A stretch of DNA of 64,000 bases from an uncultured Chlamydiae bacterium. Lineage in GTDB: Bacteria > Chlamydiota > Chlamydiia > Chlamydiales > Parachlamydiaceae. Location of the stretch: the NCBI GenBank assembly GCA_963830365.1, contig CAWHMU010000033.1, positions 1-64,000 of the forward strand. The letters run 5' to 3'. This document shows, piece by piece, positions 40,199 to 59,837 of this stretch (the first letter of the stretch is position 1; each line of letters starts with the position of its first letter). The position numbers and the translations under genes are program-made. The notes under the pieces are model-generated. The model was not told where the DNA came from. It saw only the letters and a program-made list of their open reading frames with translations, and searched no databases.

Positions 40199-41287
40199 AT
40201 GTCAATACCTAATAACTTACCCCGCAATGACCTTCTTTATGCAGTGGATGAGGCAATAAAACAGGGAGCATCTCCAAAAGATGTAAAGATAGTGAATGCG
40301 CTCTTTTCTGCAGTTCAAACGGGAAATATGGCCGCTGCTAAATGCCTTTTAGACTATAAAGTTGATGTCAATTTGCCACTCAGGACAGGACAGGCTCCTC
40401 TTACTTATGCGATGAACTCTTTAAATCCAAATATGGTTAAGCTGCTTTTAGAAGCAAAAGCTCATCCAGATCATAAGTATGGGATTGATAGACTCACCCC
40501 CATTGAATTGACTATGGAAAACCTTTACCCTGATAACATATTGGCAGCGCTTTTGAACGGTAATGCTGACCCTAATAAAAAAAGTCACCCCATACAGAAC
40601 CCACCACTGATTCAAGCTGTTTGGAAAGAGAAAGAACACGCTGGGAAAATAAAACTCTTACTCGATTCTAAGGCCAATCCAGATAGTACTAGAATTGAAG
40701 GCCTTGCCCTTGCTTCCTCGTTTCCAGACGAAACTGCCCTTCATTTAGCAAGGACCCCTGAAGTACTTAGTTTGTTGCTTGATGCCAATGCCGATCCTCG
40801 CAAAACAGATGCAAAGGGCCGTACACCTCTAGAAGCAGCGGCTCAGAGTGATGATTATCAGAAAATGGTGTGCCTATCGGATGCGTCAAAAGACGCCCAT
40901 GACCGTTTGCTTAAGGCGTTGACGGCTCAAGTACAACCTACCTCTACCTCATCTCAAAGCGCTTCTTCATCTAATCAAGAAAACGATGTTGTTTCAAAAA
41001 AGAGATCTGTACTCCCCTTGCGAACCTCTGGGGGAGAGATTCGAGTTTTTGAGTTTGTTGCTGAGTATGCCTCACCAAACAGCCATTGGCACGTCACGCG
41101 ACGCGAAGATGAAGCGAAGCGCATCCAAAGCCGACAGGAGAACTTAGATACAACTCAAAATCCGATCAAAATTTCGGAAGAAAAAAGTGAAGAGGTTAAA
41201 TCCGACGATCCTAGTAGAGCTCCACCACATCCCGAAAACCCCGACGAACCTAAGAAAAACTGCAACAGCAACTGCGGAATTATGTAA
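40199..41287 (+). CDS. Ankyrin-repeat protein with C-terminal CaaX motif
   Basis: Repeats GQAPLTYA, TALHLA, GRTPLEAA, LL.A.A.P; ends KKNCNSNCGIM; AAGGAG RBS. Confidence 0.9.
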   Translation: MSIPNNLPRNDLLYAVDEAIKQGASPKDVKIVNALFSAVQTGNMAAAKCLLDYKVDVNLPLRTGQAPLTYAMNSLNPNMVKLLLEAKAHPDHKYGIDRLTPIELTMENLYPDNILAALLNGNADPNKKSHPIQNPPLIQAVWKEKEHAGKIKLLLDSKANPDSTRIEGLALASSFPDETALHLARTPEVLSLLLDANADPRKTDAKGRTPLEAAAQSDDYQKMVCLSDASKDAHDRLLKALTAQVQPTSTSSQSASSSNQENDVVSKKRSVLPLRTSGGEIRVFEFVAEYASPNSHWHVTRREDEAKRIQSRQENLDTTQNPIKISEEKSEEVKSDDPSRAPPHPENPDEPKKNCNSNCGIM

Positions 41288-41290
41288 ATA

Positions 41291-41329
41291 AAAACAACCC
41301 CGAGGGATTACCTCGGGGTTGGAAAAAAA
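41291..41329. terminator. Terminator hairpin between convergent ankyrin gene and 5S rRNA
   Basis: AACCCCGAGG-GATTA-CCTCGGGGTT with an A-tract upstream on + (U-tract for the minus-strand 5S transcript). Confidence 0.75.
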
Positions 41330-41443
41330 TCTGGCGGCTACCTACTCTCCCAGTCTCTTGAGACTAGTACCATCGGCGACGAGGGTCTTGACTTCTGAGT
41401 TCGGGATGGGATCAGGTAGTTCCCCCTCTCTATGACTACCAGA
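41330..41443 (-). rRNA. rrf: 5S rRNA (orphan copy)
   Basis: TCTGGTAGTCATAG...CCTGATCCCATCCCGAACTCAGAAGTCAAG...GCCGATGGTACT...GGGAGAGTAGGTAGCCGCCAGA. Confidence 0.96.
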
Positions 41444-41660
41444 AAAACTTGAACTTACTGCGGCTTCGATAAATTGATGCGGCAGCTAAGTCGTCTAAAT
41501 TACAGGCATTGTTCATTAATTTGAATCGGCTCTTGAAGATGGCTCGAAAAAAACAAGTCAAGTCGTTGGACCGAAAACATTAAAAGGTAACAATCAGGTG
41601 TTTACCATTTTTATGTTTTTTGCCTCCAATCGAAAAGCCTTTCAAAATCCCGCTGTTTTC

Positions 41661-42275
41661 CTAGTTTTGCAAAAGCCTCTGAAATGTACCAAAAACTACG
41701 GCCGCAACGCACGCCGTATCGATTGCCGTTGAGACTAGTACGGTGATGCTGGCGATGCCTGCTACGCTGGCTGTGCCGGTAGCTGCTGCTAACGCAGTCC
41801 CTCCAATCAATGCCATACCTGAGGCTACGCCCCCCACCGCTGTTAATGTCATGTCGACTGCTCCCACGGCCCCACTAATCTTTCCCAGATTGACCAGGTT
41901 TTCCGCTGCTGTCATCACACCTATGGCCCCAGGTATTAATGCTGCCGCTCCTTTGACGACGGATGCGGTAATGGCCGCAATCATGAGATCTTTTACTGTC
42001 GAGGTTATATTTCTAACGACCTTTTCACTCCATTCGTTTGGTAGAGGCTTTCCATCAGGACCCATGGCAACTTCGTTTCGACAAGAAGGGCATTTACTTG
42101 AATTTTTCAGACAGTTAAGAGCGCATTGTTCATGTATCGGATGCTTATGTCCTTCATCGGCATGCACCACAACTTTTTGACCATTTCGTAATTCCATAAG
42201 ACAAACAGGGCACGTGTCATCTAAACGTTGATCAGCATCGTGATCCCTGTAAGGAGAAACTCCGGAAGGATTCAT
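41661..42275 (-). CDS. RING-finger protein with hydrophobic C-terminus (candidate E3 ligase effector)
   Basis: CPVC-x12-H..GHKHPIHEQC-x10-CPSCR, then long Ala/Gly-rich hydrophobic segments. Confidence 0.85.
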   Translation of the reverse strand: MNPSGVSPYRDHDADQRLDDTCPVCLMELRNGQKVVVHADEGHKHPIHEQCALNCLKNSSKCPSCRNEVAMGPDGKPLPNEWSEKVVRNITSTVKDLMIAAITASVVKGAAALIPGAIGVMTAAENLVNLGKISGAVGAVDMTLTAVGGVASGMALIGGTALAAATGTASVAGIASITVLVSTAIDTACVAAVVFGTFQRLLQN

Positions 42276-50415: not shown

Positions 50416-50503
50416 TCGCAAGCTTATAATTCTGATGATGGTTAGGTTGGAAGATCGGCGTCAAGATCGGGTGTCAGATCTGACATCCTGACATCCGTGT
50501 GAT

Positions 50504-50540
50504 AAAAAAATCCCGGGAAGAAATTCACGGGATTTTTTTG
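50504..50540. terminator. Bidirectional terminator
   Basis: AAAAAAATCCCG-N12-CGGGATTTTTTT between convergent genes. Confidence 0.75.
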
Positions 50541-50688
50541 TTTTATGGGGGGCTCTTAAACGAGAATTGCGGACGATGCGGACAGGAGCGGACGAGGCGG
50601 ACAATTGATGGACTGATGCGATGTCCATATAGTCCATGCTTGGTCCATTTTTCGTCCGCTAAGTCTGCCTGCCCTCCGCTGTTCTGTT

Positions 50689-51351
50689 TTAGTTGAGCGG
50701 GTGTCCCCATGCTCCCGAAAAGAAATTGTTTTCCACAGGCAGGCGCGTGCGCGGCTCATCGTCAGTTGCTGCCTGGGTATCTTCATAGCCGATGGCGATG
50801 ACGGCCAGCGGGGTGTAGCCGGCGGGTAGCTGGAAATCTTGCTGGATGGCTTGGGCGTCAAAACCGCCGATTTGATGGGCCATCAGGCCGATGTCGGCGG
50901 CTTGCAGCGACATGGCCAATGCGGCCGCGCCGGTGTCGTAGTGGGCCCACTCGTTAGCTTCGCCATTATAGCGGAATTCGGTGCGGGCGATGACGACCAC
51001 AAAGAGAGCGACATTCTCAGTCCAATCCTGGCCGTAGATGCTGTCGGCAACTTTTAGATAGGCTTCGGTATTTGCGAACCGGTCACAGAAGATGAAATTC
51101 CAGGGTTGGTCGTTAAAGCTGGAAGGGGTCCAGCGGGCAGACTGGATGAGGGCTTGGAGCTGCTCTTGCTCCACAGGGTGGCTGACAAAATTTTTGCCGC
51201 TATGTCTTTTAATGAATATTTCCGATAGCAAGTTGGAATTGTCATATAACGCTCTTGAGGCTGTGCCGCCATCCGTCGTGGTTGCAGCGGGCAGTGTAGC
51301 AGAGCAGGCTATTGCTAAACAAAAGAGTATTTTTACTATAATTTTCTGCAT
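50689..51351 (-). CDS. Nitroreductase-family protein with N-terminal signal peptide
   Basis: RHS, ARWTPSSFNDQPWNF, YDTGAA, HQIGGFD, IAIGY, R.R. N-terminus MQKIIVKILFCLAIACSATLPA. Confidence 0.9.
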   Translation of the reverse strand: MQKIIVKILFCLAIACSATLPAATTTDGGTASRALYDNSNLLSEIFIKRHSGKNFVSHPVEQEQLQALIQSARWTPSSFNDQPWNFIFCDRFANTEAYLKVADSIYGQDWTENVALFVVVIARTEFRYNGEANEWAHYDTGAAALAMSLQAADIGLMAHQIGGFDAQAIQQDFQLPAGYTPLAVIAIGYEDTQAATDDEPRTRLPVENNFFSGAWGHPLN

Positions 51352-51389
51352 TGTCTTTCCTTTATTATATGGATTTTAACAATCATCGA

Positions 51390-51566
51390 TTACTTTTTAG
51401 GTTTCGTCGCTTTGCTGGCACAGTCGAAGAGATCATTCATTTTAAAGCTTTTGGCTTTCGTAAACGTATCGTAGGCAGATGACAAGATGGTTTTGTTGGA
51501 CGCACTGAAAAGAGAAGTTGAAATAAGGCCGGCACTGACGATTAGTATTAGATAAATTCTGTTCAT
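51390..51566 (-). CDS. Small exported protein (58 aa) with flavinylation-like motif
   Basis: Read manually: GGAG RBS, then MNRIYLILIVSAGLISTSLFSASNKTILSSAYDTFTKAKSFKMNDLFDCASKATKPKK. Confidence 0.7.
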   Translation of the reverse strand: MNRIYLILIVSAGLISTSLFSASNKTILSSAYDTFTKAKSFKMNDLFDCASKATKPKK

Positions 51567-51702
51567 TAGATTAACTCCAGTTAATATTATTAAGGTATAT
51601 AGACTGTAAAAGCTTATATATTATTTAATCGCGGAATTAAAATCAATTTATTTATTATGGTGAATGTGTTATGCTTGAAAATTAAACTAACAAAATGGTT
51701 TG

Positions 51703-52722
51703 CTGATGATAGATTCAAAGATGTTTAAGTTTGTGGTTGTTTGCATTTTATTGCTGCTGATTGTGAGCAAAATACCTGTGCACCATACAGACATAAGTCA
51801 GGTGCATACTTTTGACGGCCGTGAGATGACCATCGACTATCGCATTATTGTCGGGATGAATGAAGATGACCGGCCTGAGCTTGATGGGATCATCAGCCGC
51901 ACCTTTGGGGAAATCGACCGCATTTACAATAAATGGAATCCCCATTCCGAAGTTTCGAAGCTTAATCGCTTACGTGCGCATGAGGTAGCTGCCATCTCGC
52001 CCGAGCTTGAGACTTTTTTGCAGATGACAGCAGAGATGGTTAATTTGAGCGGCGGGCGCTTTGATCCGACTATTGAACCGCTGCAACAAATTTGGAAGGA
52101 TCACCTGGAGCTGGGAAAAATCCCTTCTCAGCAAGTCATTCAAGACATCTTGCCAGTCGTTGGCTGGGATAAGCTGCATTTTGGTCGGGGTGAATTTTAC
52201 AAGGATCATGATATGACAAGCTTTGATCTTGGCGGCATTGCCAAAGGCTATTGTGTCGATCTGCTCCTCGAAAGGATCGTGGCGGCCGGTTTTGACAATG
52301 TCCTGGTCGAGTGGGGAGGGGAGATCCGCGCTCACGGCAGGCATCCCGATGAGCGCCCCTGGCGAGTTTTTGTCGGGCGCTTTGATGACGGCGACCCACA
52401 GCATGCCATCACCCATCTCGGCTTAACTAATCAGGCCATCGCCACTAGCGGCGATTATCTGCAAAATTGGAGTGTGGTCGAGGATGGTGCTGAAACCGTC
52501 TATTATCACATCATCGATCCCTTGACGGCCCAGCCGCTGTCATCGACCATGGCAAGCGTTGCCAGCGCCACGGTCGTCGCCCCCACCTGTGTGCAAGCCG
52601 ACGCCTTGGCAACCGTAGCCATGATGCATCCTTCCCTCGCTGTCGCAAGAGCATGGGCCGATAGGATCAGTCAACAAAACCCCGCCATCAAATTCTGGCT
52701 CATTTCACGTGAGGAACAGTGA
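51703..52722 (+). CDS. apbE: FAD:protein FMN transferase
   Basis: FDPTI, DLGGIAKGY, GGEI, ATSGDY, HIIDP, ADALAT; N-terminal membrane anchor. Start uncertain (51700-51721). Confidence 0.93.
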   Translation: MMIDSKMFKFVVVCILLLLIVSKIPVHHTDISQVHTFDGREMTIDYRIIVGMNEDDRPELDGIISRTFGEIDRIYNKWNPHSEVSKLNRLRAHEVAAISPELETFLQMTAEMVNLSGGRFDPTIEPLQQIWKDHLELGKIPSQQVIQDILPVVGWDKLHFGRGEFYKDHDMTSFDLGGIAKGYCVDLLLERIVAAGFDNVLVEWGGEIRAHGRHPDERPWRVFVGRFDDGDPQHAITHLGLTNQAIATSGDYLQNWSVVEDGAETVYYHIIDPLTAQPLSSTMASVASATVVAPTCVQADALATVAMMHPSLAVARAWADRISQQNPAIKFWLISREEQ

Positions 52723-53181
52723 ATGATACATGCTGAATAATGTAATGTATTGATAATAAGCTGTTCGGGTGTTTATTTAGCAGGCTTGCCAGTCGGTCGG
52801 TGGTTTTATAAACTGTCATGGATCAACGGGTTGCGCAAATCGTGCATATTGCGTGCATTGTTGGTTTTTCGAAGGTAAGACGCTAAACATTAACCACTAG
52901 ACGCTATTTTCAATCGTTCTACCCCGTAGTTATTAGTGCAACTGAAAAGTACAGGATCTAATCATGCCGAGCATAAAATATTTGTCTAATGACCGTCGGT
53001 AATGACAAGTTATTGTTTCCTCTCTAAATTCTTATCAATTTTTATGATTAATTAAATAAATCATTAAGTGAAAAGTTAAGGTTTTAAAATATTCATAAAT
53101 TTATTTAATTTGCTTTTAAGCTGTTTTTTTTCATATCTTCTTCCACAACCATCTCTAACCCTGTTTAAGCCTAGGAAATCT

Positions 53182-56100
53182 ATGATCAATCTCGAAGATC
53201 TAATGCCGAATACTACGGTTCCGGGACTCTTGCCAGCTAACGTGCAACCTGGAGGCTCGGTTTGTGAAGGCGAACCATATCAGCAATTTTCACAAAATGA
53301 TTCAATCGCCGCCGCCGCTGTTTTCTTGCACCGCATGTTGGGGCAAGACGATCTTGTATTTCAGTGCGCAGAGAAATATGTGCACAGCCGGATCTACGCG
53401 GATATGAACTTTGTGGAGTTGCGGGAAGCGCTGGTTTCTTGTGAGCCAAGAGAAATCGTAGCGCAGGTGCTAGGCTTTGCACCATTCCAGGTTAATGTGT
53501 TGAATGGAAATTACGATCAATCGATGATGCAATGGTGGCCAGGACATTTCGAAAAAATTTGTGCGACATTGGCGAAAACTTCTGATTTGCCGATCAAACG
53601 CTTTTGCTTTATGGACGATACAGAGCGCGAATTGGTGGTTAATACTTGGAACCAAACACAATGGGATTTTCCCGACTGGAAAATGCTCCACGAATTCATC
53701 GAAGAGAAATGTCAAGAGGCGCCCCATCGGGAAGCTGTGCGTTTTGCAGGTCGAGGGATTACCTACGAGGAACTTAATGCCAGAGCAAATCAACTGGCAC
53801 ATAGCCTACGCTCCGAAGGGATAGGTAGAGATAGCCTAGTAACTATCTGCATGGACCGTTCGATCGAATTGGTGGTCGGCCTTCTTGCCATCTTAAAAGC
53901 CGGCGGCGCTTATGTCCCGATGGATCCAAGCTATCCCGAAGAGCGACTGCTCTATATCCTCGCTGATTCCCAATCGAAAGTATTGCTTACGCAAAGATCC
54001 TTTGCGCCCCGCTTCGCTGATACAGCTGAAAAGGTGATCTTCATCGATCAGGCCGAAGATCTTTCATGTTACAGTAAAGAAAACCCGGAAATCATTAACA
54101 CTGCTGACGACCTCTGCTATGTGATTTACACATCAGGGTCCACAGGCAAGCCAAAGGGGGCTGGGAACATACATAAAGGCGTTGTCAACAGAATTTTATG
54201 GATGCATGATCAATACCGTTTGGATATTTCAGACCGCGTGCTGCAGAAAACACCATTCGGTTTTGATGTGTCGGTATGGGAATTCTTTTGGCCTTTGATG
54301 GCAGGGGCGACATTGGTCATGGCAGAACCTGAAATTCATAAGGACGCAGAAGCCTTGGCCAGCTTGATCGAGCGGGAAAAGATTGCCATCCTGCATTTCG
54401 TTCCTTCCATGCTCGATCTGTTTTTGGAGGCCGATGTCTCTGCAAAATGCGGCTCTTTGAAAAAGGTGTTTACTAGCGGAGAAGCTCTTTCTAAAGATAT
54501 TGAGAAGCGTTTTTTTAATATACTGTCTGCCGAACTGCATAATTTGTATGGCCCTACGGAAGCCTCAATTGATGTGACTTATTGGCGTTGCCAGCCGCAT
54601 GATGCACACATGACAGTCCCCATCGGCTATCCAATAGCAAATACTCAAATCTATATTCTCGACGAGTTTTTGCAACCCGCACCGATCGGTAGTCCCGGAG
54701 AGCTTTATATAGGCGGTACGGGGCTTGCCAGAGGCTATAGTAACCGTCCGGAATTGACGCAAGAGAAGTTCATTGCACATCCGTTCCAAGCAAACGCGCG
54801 TGTATACCGTACAGGCGATTTATGCCGTTTTCTAGGGGATGGCGCGATAGAATATATTGGCAGAATCGATCATCAGATTAAGCTGCGAGGGTTCCGCATC
54901 GAGCTTGGCGAAATCGAAACAGCGCTTCGCAAACACCCCCAAGTCAAAAGCGTGGCTGTCATCGCACGTGAAGATGTCCCGGGGCAAAAGTACTTGGCTG
55001 CTTACATTGTATCTTTGGATCAATCTATAGAGGCTGAGCTGATTTCACGGCTCCAATGTTCGCTGCCTGAATATATGGTGCCAAGCGCCTTTGTTTTCCT
55101 GCCAATTCTGCCCCTGAGTCCAAATGGAAAATTGGATGTCAAAAATCTACCCAAACCAAAAGAACAAGGGCACAGATCGGAAGTGCCCGTCGTCTTACCC
55201 AGAAATGTGTTGGAGTCGACCCTGCGCGAGGTCTGGCGCGAAGTGCTTGGGATTCAAAATGTCTGCATTCGCAACGGCTTTTTTTCACTCGGCGGCCACT
55301 CCCTGAAAGCCATGCAACTCGTATTGCGGATTAAACGGAAGCTTAACAAGCCGATCTCGTTGCCCGAAATTTTCTCCCACCCAACGATCGAACAGCAAGC
55401 CGAGCTGCTCCAAAGCAGGGAAGAGAATGATGCCAAGGAACAGGGATTGCACAGCGACCCTGTCAATCGTTGGGAGCCATTTCTTCTGACAGATATCCAA
55501 AAGGCATACCTCATCGGCAGAACCGAGGCTTTTTCGCTAGGCGGTATCTGGTCCCATGTTTATGCCGAGAATGTCCGCGGCCAAATAGATCTTCCCCGTT
55601 TGGAAAATGCTCTCAACCTGTTGATCCAGCGCCACGATATGCTAAGAGCCGTCATTCTGGAAGATGGCACGCAGCGTGTGCTAATCCAAACTCCGCGCTA
55701 TCGGATCAGAGAGGAACAAAAGGAAAAAGAACAGGTCCGCGAAGAAATGAGGTCAAAGCAATGGCGATCAGACGCCTGGCCTCTTTTTGATGTCCGGGTT
55801 TCAAACGATCGAGTCCATTTCCTGTTCGACCTCTTAATTGCCGATGGAACAGGGTTGGAAATTATTTTTGAAGAACTTTCCAGGCTCTATGATAACAAAA
55901 AAATGGATCTTCCTCCGCTGAAAATCACCTATCGCGATTGCATTCTGGCAATGGCAGCGCAAGAGCATGAAAAAGCCAGAAAATATTGGTTTAACCGTAT
56001 AGACACCCTTCCGGATGCGCCGGAACTTCCTGTACGCAATTCTGCTCAGGCAGGTCCATTTATGCGCCACAAAGGAGAGCTTTCAGCCAAGGAATGGAAA

Positions 56101-59100
56101 GCTGTCCAGCAACGGGCTGCCAATGCCGGTGTAAGCCCTGCGGCCTATCTTGTGACACTTTATGGCGAAGCTATTAAAGCTTACAGCCGCTCGGCTCACT
56201 TCACACTGAATGTAATGTTCTTCAACAGGCCTCCACTCCATCCCGATATCGATCAGGTGGTAGGGAATTTTAGTACCACGCTCCTTCTGGAAATGGACTT
56301 AAGAGATCAAGGTTCCAAAGCGCAAAAGGTACAGCAGCAACTCTTGGAGGATCTGGATCATGCTGCTTTCAACGGCATCAAGGTCTTGAATGAAAAGAAC
56401 CGCCGGCAAGGGGGCTCAACGGCAGTTGCCATGCCCATTATTTTTGCCTGCGCGTTGAATTTAAGGCCTGAAAATGGTTCGTGCCGTGTGGGTCAGCGTT
56501 TCGAATGGTATGGTAAAACCGTTCCCTACAATCATCTGGAGACTCCCCAGGTGTTGCTCGACCACCAGGTTTTTGAGGAAAAAGACGGCAGCCTGTGTTT
56601 TCACTGGGATGTCCGCGACGGTCACTTTTGTCATGGCGTCATTGAAGCGATGTTCCAAATCTACCTGGATCTCCTCAAAGAAGAGAAAAATAGCAAGAGA
56701 CTTCCGCTGCATGGGCATAAGGAAATAGATCGTATTTCTCCGGCTCCGGCAGAAAAGTGTCTGCATGAGGCGTTTTTCGAGCGGGCCTTACAGCACCCTG
56801 AGCGGGCTGCCGTTATATCCCGTAAAAAATCATTGACTTACGGGCAGCTGGCGGCAACCTCCCTGCATCTTTCGGAACGTCTTGAAACGCTCTCACTGCA
56901 AGCCGATGACCACATAGCGATAATCATGGAAAAAGGATGGGAGCAGACTGCGGCCGTGTTAGGGATCCACGCAGCAGGGGCCGCCTATCTGCCTATCGAT
57001 TCAGCCCTTCCTGAAGCAAGGATCCGTAATATGCTTTCAATTAGCCAGGCCCGGGCGGCGATTTTGCAGCAACCCCTTCCTTTTGAAATCGATATTCCAT
57101 GTTTTTTTATCGAACTGAAGGAAAATGCAAAAGCCTTTACATGCAAGCAAGACCCTTCCGATCTCGCCTATACCATTTTCACCTCAGGCTCGACAGGAGT
57201 GCCGAAAGGCGTCATGATCGAGCATAAATGTGCTCTCAATACTATCGATGCCATTAACCGTAAATATGGTGTCAATGAAAACGATCGTTGCTTTGCTTCG
57301 GCATCCTTATCATTCGATCTCTCGGTCTATGATATTTTTGGGTTTCTCAGCATCGGGGCCTCCATGTATATTCCTGGAAATGAGGAGGATCCGACCACAT
57401 GGTTGCAAACGATCCAAAAGCATCAGATTACCATATGGAATTCCACACCTGCACTGGTGCAAATCCTGGCCGACCGGGCCGATCTGTATCCGCCGGAGAA
57501 GTCGACGGTGCGTGTTTTCATGATGAGCGGCGACTGGATCCCAGTTCCTCTCCCTGATCGCATCCGCAAGCATTTCTTGGCTGATGTTTATAGCTTAGGC
57601 GGCGCAACGGAGGCGTCGATCTGGTCAAATGACTATCCAATAGGTAAGGTCGATCTCTCTTGGCCAAGCATTCCTTATGGCAAGGCACTTGCCAATCAAA
57701 CGATGGTGGTGCTCGATGAGGAACTTGAACCGCGGTCTGTTTGGGCTACAGGGATGATCTATATCGGTGGCATAGGTTTGGCAAGGGGATATCTCAATGA
57801 TCCGGAAAAAACAGCCAAAAGTTTTATCGTTCAACCGCGGACAGGACAGCGCCTATATCGCACGGGAGATCTCGGGCGTCTGCATGAGGATGGCAACATC
57901 GAATTTTTAGGTCGCGAAGACTTGCAAGTTAAAGTGCAGGGATACCGAATCGAACTGGAAGAGATTGAATCTGCCATCTACCGCTATGAAGGTGTCAAGC
58001 AAGCTGCCGCCCGTATTGTTGGAAAAAAGAGCGAAGCTATAAGGATTGCAGCCTTTTTTACGGCCTCGACAGCGATTGAATCCTCTTTATTGGAAGGGCA
58101 TCTTGCGCAGCTGCTGCCCTCCTATATGATTCCCCATCAGCTGCTTCAGCTGGAAAGCTTCCCACTCAGCCCAAACGGAAAAGTCGATGTGCAAGCGCTT
58201 GTTTCCAAATTTTCCGGTTCGGCTGCCACTTCGAGAGTCTATGTGGCCCCAGAAGGGGCTCTTGAAGAGAGCATGGCCGAGATCTGGTCTTCGCTGCTCA
58301 ATCTGCCCAACATCGGCCGAAATGATAATTTCTTTGCCCTGGGAGGAACGTCATTTCTCGCCTTTCGCATGGTATTCCTTATGCAAAAGGAACTGGGGCT
58401 TGCCATTCCTATCGCGGCCCTTTTCCAAAAGGGGACAATTGCGGAATTGGCCCATCTTGGAGAAGTGCATGACGACCCCTCGTTTGTGCCGCTGCAGATG
58501 AAAGGGACAAAAGAACCTGTTTTTCTTGTCCACCCATCCGGCGGAGGGGTGCTTTGCTATACAGAACTCGCTTCACTTTTATCCGGCCGCCCCATCTATG
58601 CATTTCAGGCGCCCGGTTTGCTTGATGGGCGGATCGCCTTATCATCGATAGAAGCCATGGCGGAACACTACCTCAAAATTCTCTTAAAAAAACAACCGAA
58701 CGGTCCCTACTTTATCGGAGGGTGGTCCTTAGGGGGAGTGGTCGCGTTTGAAATGGCGCAGAGGTTGCAGAAGATGAACAAGGAACTTGCCCCTGTTCTC
58801 TTGATTGATTCACCTTCTCCTTATACTGGCAGCAATATACCCGATGCTGCTATGCTCTATCGCTGGTTTGAAGAAGATTATGGGGAAGCGTTATTAGTGT
58901 TTGATAAGGATACGAAGGAATCACTCTTCAAGGTCTTCTGTGCGCACTTGCTGGCGCTAAGAAACTACGGCCCGTCCAGGGCCCCCATCGATTTGATTCA
59001 GCTGAAGGCTGAAGTTGCCTCGGTGGAGCATTTAGAAAGGCATCCAGACAAAATGACTGCCGATTGGGGATGGAGCAGAATCAGCACGGGACGTATTGAA

Positions 59101-59190
59101 CACTATTCATTTGCGGCAACCCATGCCTCGATTCTCCAATCACCATGCGTGCAGGAGATTTCGGCAAAAATCGCTTCTATATGGGGATGA
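53182..59190 (+). CDS. Bimodular NRPS: truncated C - A(Ser) - T - Cy - A(Cys) - T - TE
   Basis: Two A domains (YTSGSTGKPKG, FTSGSTGVPKG); T domains GGHSL and GGTSF; Cy signatures PFLLTDIQKAYLIGR, DLLIADG, TPQVLLDHQ; TE GWSLGG. Hand-read specificity codes DVWHFSLIDK and DLYNMSLIWK. Confidence 0.93.
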   Translation: MINLEDLMPNTTVPGLLPANVQPGGSVCEGEPYQQFSQNDSIAAAAVFLHRMLGQDDLVFQCAEKYVHSRIYADMNFVELREALVSCEPREIVAQVLGFAPFQVNVLNGNYDQSMMQWWPGHFEKICATLAKTSDLPIKRFCFMDDTERELVVNTWNQTQWDFPDWKMLHEFIEEKCQEAPHREAVRFAGRGITYEELNARANQLAHSLRSEGIGRDSLVTICMDRSIELVVGLLAILKAGGAYVPMDPSYPEERLLYILADSQSKVLLTQRSFAPRFADTAEKVIFIDQAEDLSCYSKENPEIINTADDLCYVIYTSGSTGKPKGAGNIHKGVVNRILWMHDQYRLDISDRVLQKTPFGFDVSVWEFFWPLMAGATLVMAEPEIHKDAEALASLIEREKIAILHFVPSMLDLFLEADVSAKCGSLKKVFTSGEALSKDIEKRFFNILSAELHNLYGPTEASIDVTYWRCQPHDAHMTVPIGYPIANTQIYILDEFLQPAPIGSPGELYIGGTGLARGYSNRPELTQEKFIAHPFQANARVYRTGDLCRFLGDGAIEYIGRIDHQIKLRGFRIELGEIETALRKHPQVKSVAVIAREDVPGQKYLAAYIVSLDQSIEAELISRLQCSLPEYMVPSAFVFLPILPLSPNGKLDVKNLPKPKEQGHRSEVPVVLPRNVLESTLREVWREVLGIQNVCIRNGFFSLGGHSLKAMQLVLRIKRKLNKPISLPEIFSHPTIEQQAELLQSREENDAKEQGLHSDPVNRWEPFLLTDIQKAYLIGRTEAFSLGGIWSHVYAENVRGQIDLPRLENALNLLIQRHDMLRAVILEDGTQRVLIQTPRYRIREEQKEKEQVREEMRSKQWRSDAWPLFDVRVSNDRVHFLFDLLIADGTGLEIIFEELSRLYDNKKMDLPPLKITYRDCILAMAAQEHEKARKYWFNRIDTLPDAPELPVRNSAQAGPFMRHKGELSAKEWKAVQQRAANAGVSPAAYLVTLYGEAIKAYSRSAHFTLNVMFFNRPPLHPDIDQVVGNFSTTLLLEMDLRDQGSKAQKVQQQLLEDLDHAAFNGIKVLNEKNRRQGGSTAVAMPIIFACALNLRPENGSCRVGQRFEWYGKTVPYNHLETPQVLLDHQVFEEKDGSLCFHWDVRDGHFCHGVIEAMFQIYLDLLKEEKNSKRLPLHGHKEIDRISPAPAEKCLHEAFFERALQHPERAAVISRKKSLTYGQLAATSLHLSERLETLSLQADDHIAIIMEKGWEQTAAVLGIHAAGAAYLPIDSALPEARIRNMLSISQARAAILQQPLPFEIDIPCFFIELKENAKAFTCKQDPSDLAYTIFTSGSTGVPKGVMIEHKCALNTIDAINRKYGVNENDRCFASASLSFDLSVYDIFGFLSIGASMYIPGNEEDPTTWLQTIQKHQITIWNSTPALVQILADRADLYPPEKSTVRVFMMSGDWIPVPLPDRIRKHFLADVYSLGGATEASIWSNDYPIGKVDLSWPSIPYGKALANQTMVVLDEELEPRSVWATGMIYIGGIGLARGYLNDPEKTAKSFIVQPRTGQRLYRTGDLGRLHEDGNIEFLGREDLQVKVQGYRIELEEIESAIYRYEGVKQAAARIVGKKSEAIRIAAFFTASTAIESSLLEGHLAQLLPSYMIPHQLLQLESFPLSPNGKVDVQALVSKFSGSAATSRVYVAPEGALEESMAEIWSSLLNLPNIGRNDNFFALGGTSFLAFRMVFLMQKELGLAIPIAALFQKGTIAELAHLGEVHDDPSFVPLQMKGTKEPVFLVHPSGGGVLCYTELASLLSGRPIYAFQAPGLLDGRIALSSIEAMAEHYLKILLKKQPNGPYFIGGWSLGGVVAFEMAQRLQKMNKELAPVLLIDSPSPYTGSNIPDAAMLYRWFEEDYGEALLVFDKDTKESLFKVFCAHLLALRNYGPSRAPIDLIQLKAEVASVEHLERHPDKMTADWGWSRISTGRIEHYSFAATHASILQSPCVQEISAKIASIWG

Positions 59191-59837
59191 GGACAGCCAT
59201 AAGTTTTTATGAGTTTGATCTTTCCTTATATTCAATGGAAAGTGCTTTGCGCCTATTAGCTGCGGAGGAACTGAAGCGCCTTGCGGAATATCACCCTGGG
59301 GTAATTCAGTGCAGATTTGCAATTGGACGAGGTCTGCTGCGTGCCGTGTTGGGGCAGTGGTTGGGTGCCGATCCAAGGGCTGTGCAAATTCGCCATGGAA
59401 CCTATGGAAAGCCGGAAACCAATGGGGTTTTTTTCAACCTCAGCCATGCGGAGGAGAAAATGATTTTGGCTCTTAGCCACCAAGGACCTGTTGGCGTGGA
59501 TATGGAAAAATATGATGAAAGCGCCTGGTCAGAAGAGCTCGAGGATGCTCTTTTGTCGACGGAGGAGAGATTGAATCTTGCTGCCATGCCACCGCAGCAA
59601 AGGAAATATTATTTTTTTTCTCTATGGACAATGAAAGAAGCATATCTAAAGGAGAAGGGGTGTGGGTTGATTTCAGATTTAAAAGAGGTCGATACAAAGA
59701 ACCTCAGTCAGCATACACACTGGATGTCTCTTCCCGTAGAAGCTCCCTATATAGCCTATTTAACAACATCTTATGAGGTATCACATGTCATCAAGTTTGA
59801 GTCTTGCAACCCATACATCGAAGCCAGAATGGCCTAA
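59187..59837 (+). CDS. Sfp-type 4'-phosphopantetheinyl transferase
   Basis: YGKP, FNLSH, VGVDME, WTMKEAYLK..G.G; ATGA overlap with the NRPS stop. Confidence 0.93.
   Translation: MRTAISFYEFDLSLYSMESALRLLAAEELKRLAEYHPGVIQCRFAIGRGLLRAVLGQWLGADPRAVQIRHGTYGKPETNGVFFNLSHAEEKMILALSHQGPVGVDMEKYDESAWSEELEDALLSTEERLNLAAMPPQQRKYYFFSLWTMKEAYLKEKGCGLISDLKEVDTKNLSQHTHWMSLPVEAPYIAYLTTSYEVSHVIKFESCNPYIEARMA

Follow-up and report, generated by a model that had tools for sequence, protein, structure and literature searches.

Within an environmental chlamydia of the Parachlamydiaceae, a gene for a 58-residue peptide with a flavinylation-like C-terminal motif lies between a second apbE gene and a gene for a predicted exported nitroreductase. 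Sequence comparison confirmed that this small ORF represents a real, coding and conserved gene family. Because the peptide is encoded between a spare apbE and the nitroreductase and is fused to the latter in one genome, it likely obtains a covalent flavin, which it would lend to the enzyme. Our preferred reading, put forward tentatively and with rather less than an even chance of being correct, is that of a split covalent flavoenzyme, in which a separate Lys-motif peptide, flavinylated by its own orthogonal ApbE paralogue, would plug FMN into an exported nitroreductase. The window, i.e. the whole stretch of 64,000 nucleotides analysed here, corresponds to G000:C33:1-64000 and belongs to a host genome of 2.73 Mb that is 82% complete.

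Organization of the locus

The three ORFs described in a first-pass annotation of this DNA, and the 38-bp gap between two of them, were verified. The nitroreductase gene occupies positions 50689 to 51351 on the minus strand (220 aa; PF00881, E 4.7e-20) and is preceded on the same strand, with this spacing of 38 bp, by the peptide gene at 51390 to 51566 (58 aa). The apbE paralogue runs divergently on the plus strand from 51700 to 52722 (340 aa from a TTG codon; PF02424, E 2.9e-61), with ATG codons following its TTG start at 51706 and 51721. We refer to these genes as the module.

The peptide has no Pfam family and consists of a hydrophobic N-terminus, a variable linker, a C-terminal flavinylation-like motif and a basic tail, its C-terminus reading F-D-C-A-S-K-A-T-K-P-K-K. 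The candidate motif D48-C-A-S-K-A-T54, assigned from sequence and alignment, is encoded at 51405 to 51425 on the minus strand, with the codon of the predicted FMN acceptor Thr54 at 51405 to 51407. A ribosome-binding-like GGAG word is found on the same strand at 51575 to 51578, 8 nt upstream of the peptide ATG. The GGAG, the N-terminus (judged by hydropathy) and the C-terminal D-C-A-S-K-A-T agree with what had been annotated; the additional, weaker motif D-T-F-T-K-A had to be abandoned, as it is without an acceptor residue, because a Lys follows, and is not conserved in the homologues. The signal peptides of all module proteins were assessed by hydropathy alone.

The divergent intergenic region at 51567 to 51699 is AT-rich (23% GC) and contains weak sigma-70-like matches on the minus strand at 51610 to 51583 and 51681 to 51654, which are consensus matches only. 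A hairpin flanked by A7/T7 at 50504 to 50539, between the nitroreductase gene and a convergent 413-aa gene, is the likely terminator of the peptide-nitroreductase transcript; it is absent from the list of the terminator scan. The Pfam scan revealed an NRPS encoded just downstream in the window. Among the ORFs listed around the modules of G026, G007 and G073, none was NRPS-sized or NRPS-like as judged by length and first residues, and no membrane redox or electron-transfer gene was present in any module locus inspected. A role of the nitroreductase as oxidase of the adjacent NRPS was considered and rejected in view of a SagB score of 27 (cut-off 78) and a neighbourhood that is not conserved.

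A rare and conserved peptide family

When the peptide was used as a query against 61 genomes, only weak matches came back, yet the top two adjoined apbE genes. Profile searches and locus inspection gave a family of ten distinct homologues of 46 to 93 aa with a hydrophobic N-terminus: the window peptide, those of G026, G073 and G007, the fused L058, and L143, L146, L147, P0125 and P0126. Counted once were L058, which is the same sequence as G077:C140, the L147 peptide, which recurs in L149, and G026, of which L144 is a repeat. The idea that relatives would carry the small ORF with its motif conserved was borne out by ten homologues; of the eight peptides with DNA context, seven adjoin apbE. Purine words comparable to the GGAG of the window precede six of the seven other homologues for which DNA was available.

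Among the ten aligned members, the linker differs greatly both in length and in sequence. The peptide tail is basic (+3 to +4). Third codon positions hold 137 of the 250 pairwise differences in the motif codons, and whole-gene dN/dS values ranged from 0.14 to 0.51 in four of six pairs, the other two being saturated. In a chance control, whose criteria were chosen after the window peptide had been seen, a relaxed C-terminal motif combined with a hydrophobic N-terminus occurred in 2 of 23,966 ORFs of 30 to 100 aa from the same genome, the window peptide being one of the two. The most deviant member is the G007 peptide, with Arg at motif position 5 and the tail T-R-S-K, which may be in decay. In L147, the longer reading of the peptide is interrupted by a stop at codon 4.

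The family is rare. Strong matches were found in 5 of 73 genomes of the window's taxonomic family, spanning four genera; three extra weak matches among these 73 genomes align with the hydrophobic start alone. In an order-wide search of 400 genomes with a four-row profile, strong matches were confined to the window's family. A Pfam scan of six peptides gave nothing below E 0.1 and no FMN_bind, DUF2271, DUF3570 or NqrB carrier domain. Viral contigs yielded no matches, the plasmid search returned two distant nitroreductases (32-33%), and the best score in the ESM Atlas (0.87) belonged to an unnamed entry that gave no lead. In the sequencing-run search, no RNA run was listed as a carrier and a single DNA contig was recovered with 241 bp covered, which provides no evidence either way.

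A basic residue at the Gly position of the motif

All ten peptides keep D-x-x-[S/A]-[K/R]-A-[T/S]-K, with D48, A53 and K55 (window numbering) invariant. When compared to the canonical D-x-x-[S/T]-G-A-[S/T], the Asp at position 1, the Ala at position 6 and the Ser/Thr acceptor at position 7 are present in every peptide, the acceptor being T in seven and S in three. Position 4 is S in eight and A in two; in NqrC of relatives, this residue is A, T or S. Position 5 is K in nine peptides and R in one, so that neither Gln nor the canonical Gly occurs in any of the ten.

The Lys had been flagged as non-canonical, and rightly so. According to the available text of PMC12052999, the canonical ApbE motif carries Gly at position 5, exchange of this Gly for Ala halves flavinylation, and a 7-residue terminal tag suffices for ApbE; our literature search found no report of Lys at this position in any tested substrate. 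Yet the chlamydial NqrB does not carry Gly either: D-G-[Y/F]-[S/T]-Q-A-T or a close variant was seen in 27 of 30 loci, the other three being unparsed, and Gly in none. The NqrC of the lineage retains its Gly at position 5. The Gln-containing stretch of NqrB would be its flavinylation site, judging from its position after the aligned segment and from the motif D-G-Y-S-G-A-T of Vibrio NqrB; our literature searches found no text on this chlamydial variant. Since chlamydial NqrB has Gln there, a residue other than Gly weighs less against flavinylation than first feared. Summed over all readings that require it, flavinylation of the peptide appears probable.

A dedicated ApbE paralogue

The window ApbE reaches 207.8 bits against PF02424 (cut-off 25.6). 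Its catalytic Ser/His/Asp residues S250, H270 and D301 align with motifs of the Vibrio cholerae enzyme, and the position that switches between transferase and hydrolase is occupied by an aromatic residue, W79. Hydrolysis of FAD to FMN is carried out by some ApbEs, and a bulky aromatic residue at the switch position was reported to block this hydrolysis and still to allow transfer (PMC4436053, available text). The genome contains a second apbE on contig C38, behind folD and an nqr operon.

A survey of apbE genes covered 64 loci from 59 of the 73 family genomes, all of which were inspected. The peptide was found in none of the 55 folD-linked loci versus four of the nine others, where it lies divergently upstream of apbE. 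Of the five remaining loci, one is a lipoprotein copy that has been relocated and one a broken gene fragment; another is half of a folD-linked gene cut off by the contig edge, and two are copies of 30% identity. The four module ApbEs keep the catalytic motifs and group in one clade, with an SH-aLRT of 97 in one quick tree and 98 in another. This clade is distinct from the housekeeping ApbEs that the same hosts encode, and the partial ApbEs of L143 and L146 have a module ApbE as first match. The lipobox Cys column is filled in 54 of 55 housekeeping ApbEs; the window copy has Val, and one of the four module ApbEs has a Cys in this column, outside a typical lipobox context. Taken from sequence and gene order, these data support a dedicated paralogue that travels with the peptide.

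In G073, the gap between folD and trxB is 10 bp on a continuous contig, the arrangement elsewhere being folD-apbE-trxB, and the sole ApbE found is the module copy. Neither G073 (80% complete) nor G026 (89% complete) gave a match to FMN_bind, NqrB/RnfD or DUF2271, the domains searched. The pattern in G073 suggests that ApbE was retained for the peptide. The ApbE of L147 carries no signal and falls outside the module clade, monophyly not being rejected (AU p 0.48), and the genome with the fusion, G077 (96% complete), has a folD-linked ApbE only.

The predicted exported nitroreductase and its link to the peptide

The window nitroreductase scores 72.9 bits against PF00881 (cut-off 23.5) and retains the FMN-phosphate residues R49, S51, R201 and R203; three of these, R49, S51 and R203, are unchanged in every one of the 119 homologues aligned. 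The subclade enzymes thus keep residues suited to ordinary non-covalent binding of FMN, which counts against a flavin supplied by the peptide. Its nearest relatives in named records are from Parachlamydiaceae, and every match to the named equivalogs NfsA, NfsB, BluB, RutE and SagB stayed far under the NCBIfam curated cut-off. The hydrophobic extension of about residues 1 to 22 is read as a Sec signal and the enzyme is predicted to be exported. The signal-like extension noted in the first-pass annotation proved to be a family trait, with a hydrophobic N-terminus in 103 of 120 homologues versus 28% of the genome's own long ORFs (hydropathy). AGGA precedes the ATG, and the only other candidate start upstream of the domain, the TTG of codon 41, has no RBS-like word. 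No twin-arginine motif was present in these N-termini; the enzymes would therefore be exported unfolded and loaded with FMN outside the cytoplasm. In that location, they are unlikely to work as plain NAD(P)H nitroreductases, and a different donor would be needed.

All nine peptide-linked nitroreductases fall into one subclade (SH-aLRT 96; 42 of 69 rows). This Parachlamydiaceae subclade is acidic, with a median net charge of -13 versus -3 in the other homologues; the L147 enzyme is not (+1). A substitution of the enzyme's second phosphate-binding basic residue by the peptide Lys was considered and discarded, as enzyme position 53 is Lys in six of the nine.

Seven of the eight peptides with DNA context adjoin or are fused to a signal-peptide nitroreductase; these loci share common descent and cannot be counted as independent observations. 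The fused form, L058, is a single chain of 249 aa with a signal, the motif F-D-G-V-A-K-A-T-K, a 40-residue linker and the enzyme domain. It is one metagenome-assembled sequence; a search for further long fused forms returned this fusion only, and the motif is in cis in 1 of 120 nitroreductase homologues. The model of L058 shows an N-terminal helix (residues 3 to 16), an unstructured motif region (pLDDT ~54) and a nitroreductase fold that matches 2FRE (E 3e-16); a single-chain model cannot reveal docking because the FMN site forms in the dimer. L147 has a different gene order, with peptide, nitroreductase and apbE co-linear on one strand. The contigs of P0125 and P0126 are equal in size to those of two more such nitroreductases, which suggests that these peptides adjoin nitroreductases as well.

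Among the 21 family genomes that match the nitroreductase profile, the peptide is carried by four of the five with the best-scoring enzymes and by none of the other 16. Because these 16 have neither the subclade enzyme nor the peptide, nitroreductases with a signal do occur in its absence. Within the subclade itself, two enzymes with known context, L057 and L145, have no peptide. Conversely, G007 (99% complete) has the peptide and a module ApbE and gave no PF00881 match. The earlier proposal of a tie between peptide and nitroreductase therefore stands in part: the natural fusion and the second gene order speak for it, but on this evidence the association is not obligatory, G007 and most signal-peptide nitroreductases lacking one of the partners.

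Discussion

We give slightly less than an even chance to a mechanism in which a peptide arm flavinylated by ApbE occupies the FMN site of the nitroreductase in trans. All three module proteins would be exported via Sec, the domain-less peptide likely being released or held in the membrane by its N-terminus. The ApbE paralogue would move FMN from FAD onto Thr54, tolerating Lys where Gly is usual. Once flavinylated, the basic peptide tail K-A-T-K-P-K-K would bind the acidic nitroreductase dimer and seat the flavin in its normal pocket, as the in-cis motifs of ApbE-associated FMN_red proteins do. The advantage would lie in retaining FMN on an enzyme whose folding takes place outside the cytoplasm.

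Other readings have to be weighed against this one. The peptide-FMN may instead be a tethered electron shuttle, a substrate-like redox partner that links the membrane to a nitroreductase holding its own non-covalent FMN. The enzyme retains every FMN-phosphate residue, a reductase outside the cytoplasm must draw its electrons from a source other than NAD(P)H, and in G026, L143, L146, P0125 and P0126 the hydrophobic stretch is followed by Y-N-T or Y-N-S with no cleavage site obvious by eye, so that these peptides resemble an uncleaved anchor on a short leash. The module loci, however, are without a membrane redox gene, G026 and G073 gave no Nqr match, and a bare peptide has no pocket for tuning the flavin; we regard the shuttle as unlikely, if still the strongest of the alternatives. 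About equally unlikely is a peptide that is not flavinylated at all. Its Lys/Arg could make it a pseudo-substrate that binds the ApbE paralogue and regulates it; alternatively, it could be a small anchor or accessory protein in which the likeness to the ApbE site reflects descent only. ApbE might instead release free FMN for the nitroreductase. This would fit the basic residue at position 5 in ten of ten peptides, never Gly or Gln, the drop in flavinylation already seen upon Gly-to-Ala exchange (PMC12052999, available text) and the FAD-to-FMN hydrolysis known for some ApbEs (PMC4436053, available text). Such a role is difficult to reconcile with an acceptor position that varies solely between Thr and Ser, with the Trp of the module ApbE, where a bulky aromatic reportedly blocks FAD hydrolysis, and with G073, which shows no other substrate on which the retained ApbE could be regulated.

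A flavinylated peptide could also serve as a periplasmic flavin store or as the cofactor arm of proteins other than the nitroreductase, which would be one optional, hitch-hiking client. G007, with peptide and ApbE and no nitroreductase found, would be explained in this way, as would the absence of the peptide beside most nitroreductases of the family. Against it, seven of eight peptides with DNA context adjoin or are fused to a nitroreductase of one and the same subclade, and the G007 peptide is the most deviant and may be decaying; we consider such a store improbable. The least likely explanation, a chance intergenic frame next to an ordinary cytoplasmic nitroreductase near apbE, could only draw on the lack of a Pfam or Atlas family. 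It is largely refuted by the conservation of frame, RBS-like word and motif across four genera and several metagenome contigs, by dN/dS values below 1, by the in-frame fusion and the homologues reported as proteins by gene callers, and by the contrast between the hydrophobic N-termini of 103 of 120 nitroreductase homologues and the 28% in long ORFs.

The split flavoenzyme that we favour has several relatives among known systems. ApbE systems and the tethering of flavins to existing flavoproteins are already known. The closest likeness is to the ApbE-flavinylated FMN_red (PF03358) and Flavodoxin_4 (PF12682) proteins of Huang, Meheust, Barquera and Light (2024; PMC11334425, main text), in which an apbE-adjacent flavoprotein of a normally non-covalent kind has gained the motif. 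An extension or loop without fixed structure carries it and brings covalent FMN to the flavin site already present. In those proteins, motif and flavoprotein share one chain, the folds are others and the hosts mainly Firmicutes, whereas the module has a PF00881 fold, a separate peptide gene (in cis in one fusion only) and Lys/Arg at position 5; neither 'nitroreductase' nor 'chlamyd' occurs in that main text. The FMN_bind (NqrC/RnfG), NqrB/RnfD, DUF2271 and DUF3570 substrates of Meheust et al. (2021; PMC8238504, main text) share a D-x-x-[S/T]-x-A-[S/T] site, a predicted extracytosolic location and an apbE neighbour, but they are folded domains or membrane proteins, unlike the domain-less window peptide. 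The same two words are absent from that main text. The supplements of both surveys may list loci of this kind, as orphan apbE loci in the case of Meheust et al.

Engineered systems resemble parts of the proposal. A 7-residue terminal Flavin-tag is flavinylated (PMC12052999), and the covalent nitroreductase BtNR is active with FMN tethered through its phosphate by ApbE (PMC10722498); as far as the available texts go, both differ from the module in being artificial, in cis and built on the canonical Gly motif. The cyclodipeptide oxidase AlbA/AlbB likewise combines a nitroreductase-fold enzyme, covalent FMN and a small partner gene, but has an 8-alpha-S-cysteinyl link to the flavin ring, a folded AlbB partner, a filament and a biosynthetic cluster; the available text of PMC11055893 mentions neither ApbE nor a phosphoester link, and in 2024 singled out AlbA as the sole NTR-like protein reported to carry covalent FMN. 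In the open-access main texts covered by our literature search, we found no domain-less natural ApbE substrate, Lys motif, ApbE-linked nitroreductase or module of this kind.

If the split flavoenzyme is confirmed, it would be the first natural ApbE-type covalent FMN that our searches could trace in the nitroreductase superfamily and a case of cofactor tethering in trans, of which the fused form would show the step to cis. An ApbE substrate could then be a bare peptide of about 50 residues that motif and domain searches miss, which may in turn explain some of the 'orphan' apbE genes counted in 4% of genomes (Meheust et al. 2021; PMC8238504, main text). The motif could carry Lys, so that the second ApbE might be specific for a tag of its own, and this specificity could yield an orthogonal Flavin-tag pair; nitroreductases, which find use in biocatalysis and prodrug activation, might acquire a tethered flavin in trans. 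For the environmental chlamydiae, the finding points to a predicted exported nitroreductase family that has no named function and would need an electron donor other than NAD(P)H.

Relatives of the nitroreductase and of ApbE

A signal peptide was predicted by hydropathy in 103 of the 120 best homologues of the nitroreductase, and a large family of such enzymes with a predicted signal was seen among environmental chlamydia-like sequences (P0006-P0120). In the subclade nitroreductases of 395-428 aa (P0002-P0005, P0009, P0015, P0030 and the peptide-less enzyme L145:3-1124), an N-terminal domain of about 200 aa stands in place of the signal; neither of the two scanned gave a Pfam match for this domain. 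These long enzymes clustered in the tree with the fusion of peptide and nitroreductase in one chain. Since the fusion gene's neighbours (L142), judged by their first residues, resemble an integrase gene, a nuclease gene and a umuDC pair, its surroundings suggest a genomic island.

As for other apbE copies, G022 holds two divergent ApbE-like genes (L137 and L139, approximately 30% identity), both without folD linkage and without the peptide. In G026, the intact module apbE is followed 2 kb further downstream by a broken apbE fragment (L135:2046-2558, G026:C137). At the putative flavinylation motif of chlamydial NqrB, Gln replaces Gly in 27 of 30 loci (L001:3-977 from the window's own genome, G000:C9, and L225-L254) and an insertion of about 20 residues precedes the Gln-bearing motif. 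Literature searches found no mention of this Gln variant.

Genomic surroundings of the module

Beside the nitroreductase, the intergenic region at 50440-50690 folds strongly (z -6.1). It contains a long imperfect, GCGGAC-rich inverted repeat in addition to a terminator-like hairpin, and is possibly a repeat element. Downstream of the module, this chlamydial genome encodes a 2026-aa NRPS and, after it, a phosphopantetheinyl transferase (53110-59837). The NRPS has two adenylation and two carrier domains, together with a single condensation-type domain and a single thioesterase domain. The condensation domain contains D-L-L-I-A-D, a sequence similar to the heterocyclisation signature. Finally, an ankyrin-repeat and a RING-finger protein are encoded at 40199-42275; such eukaryote-like genes are typical of host-associated chlamydiae.
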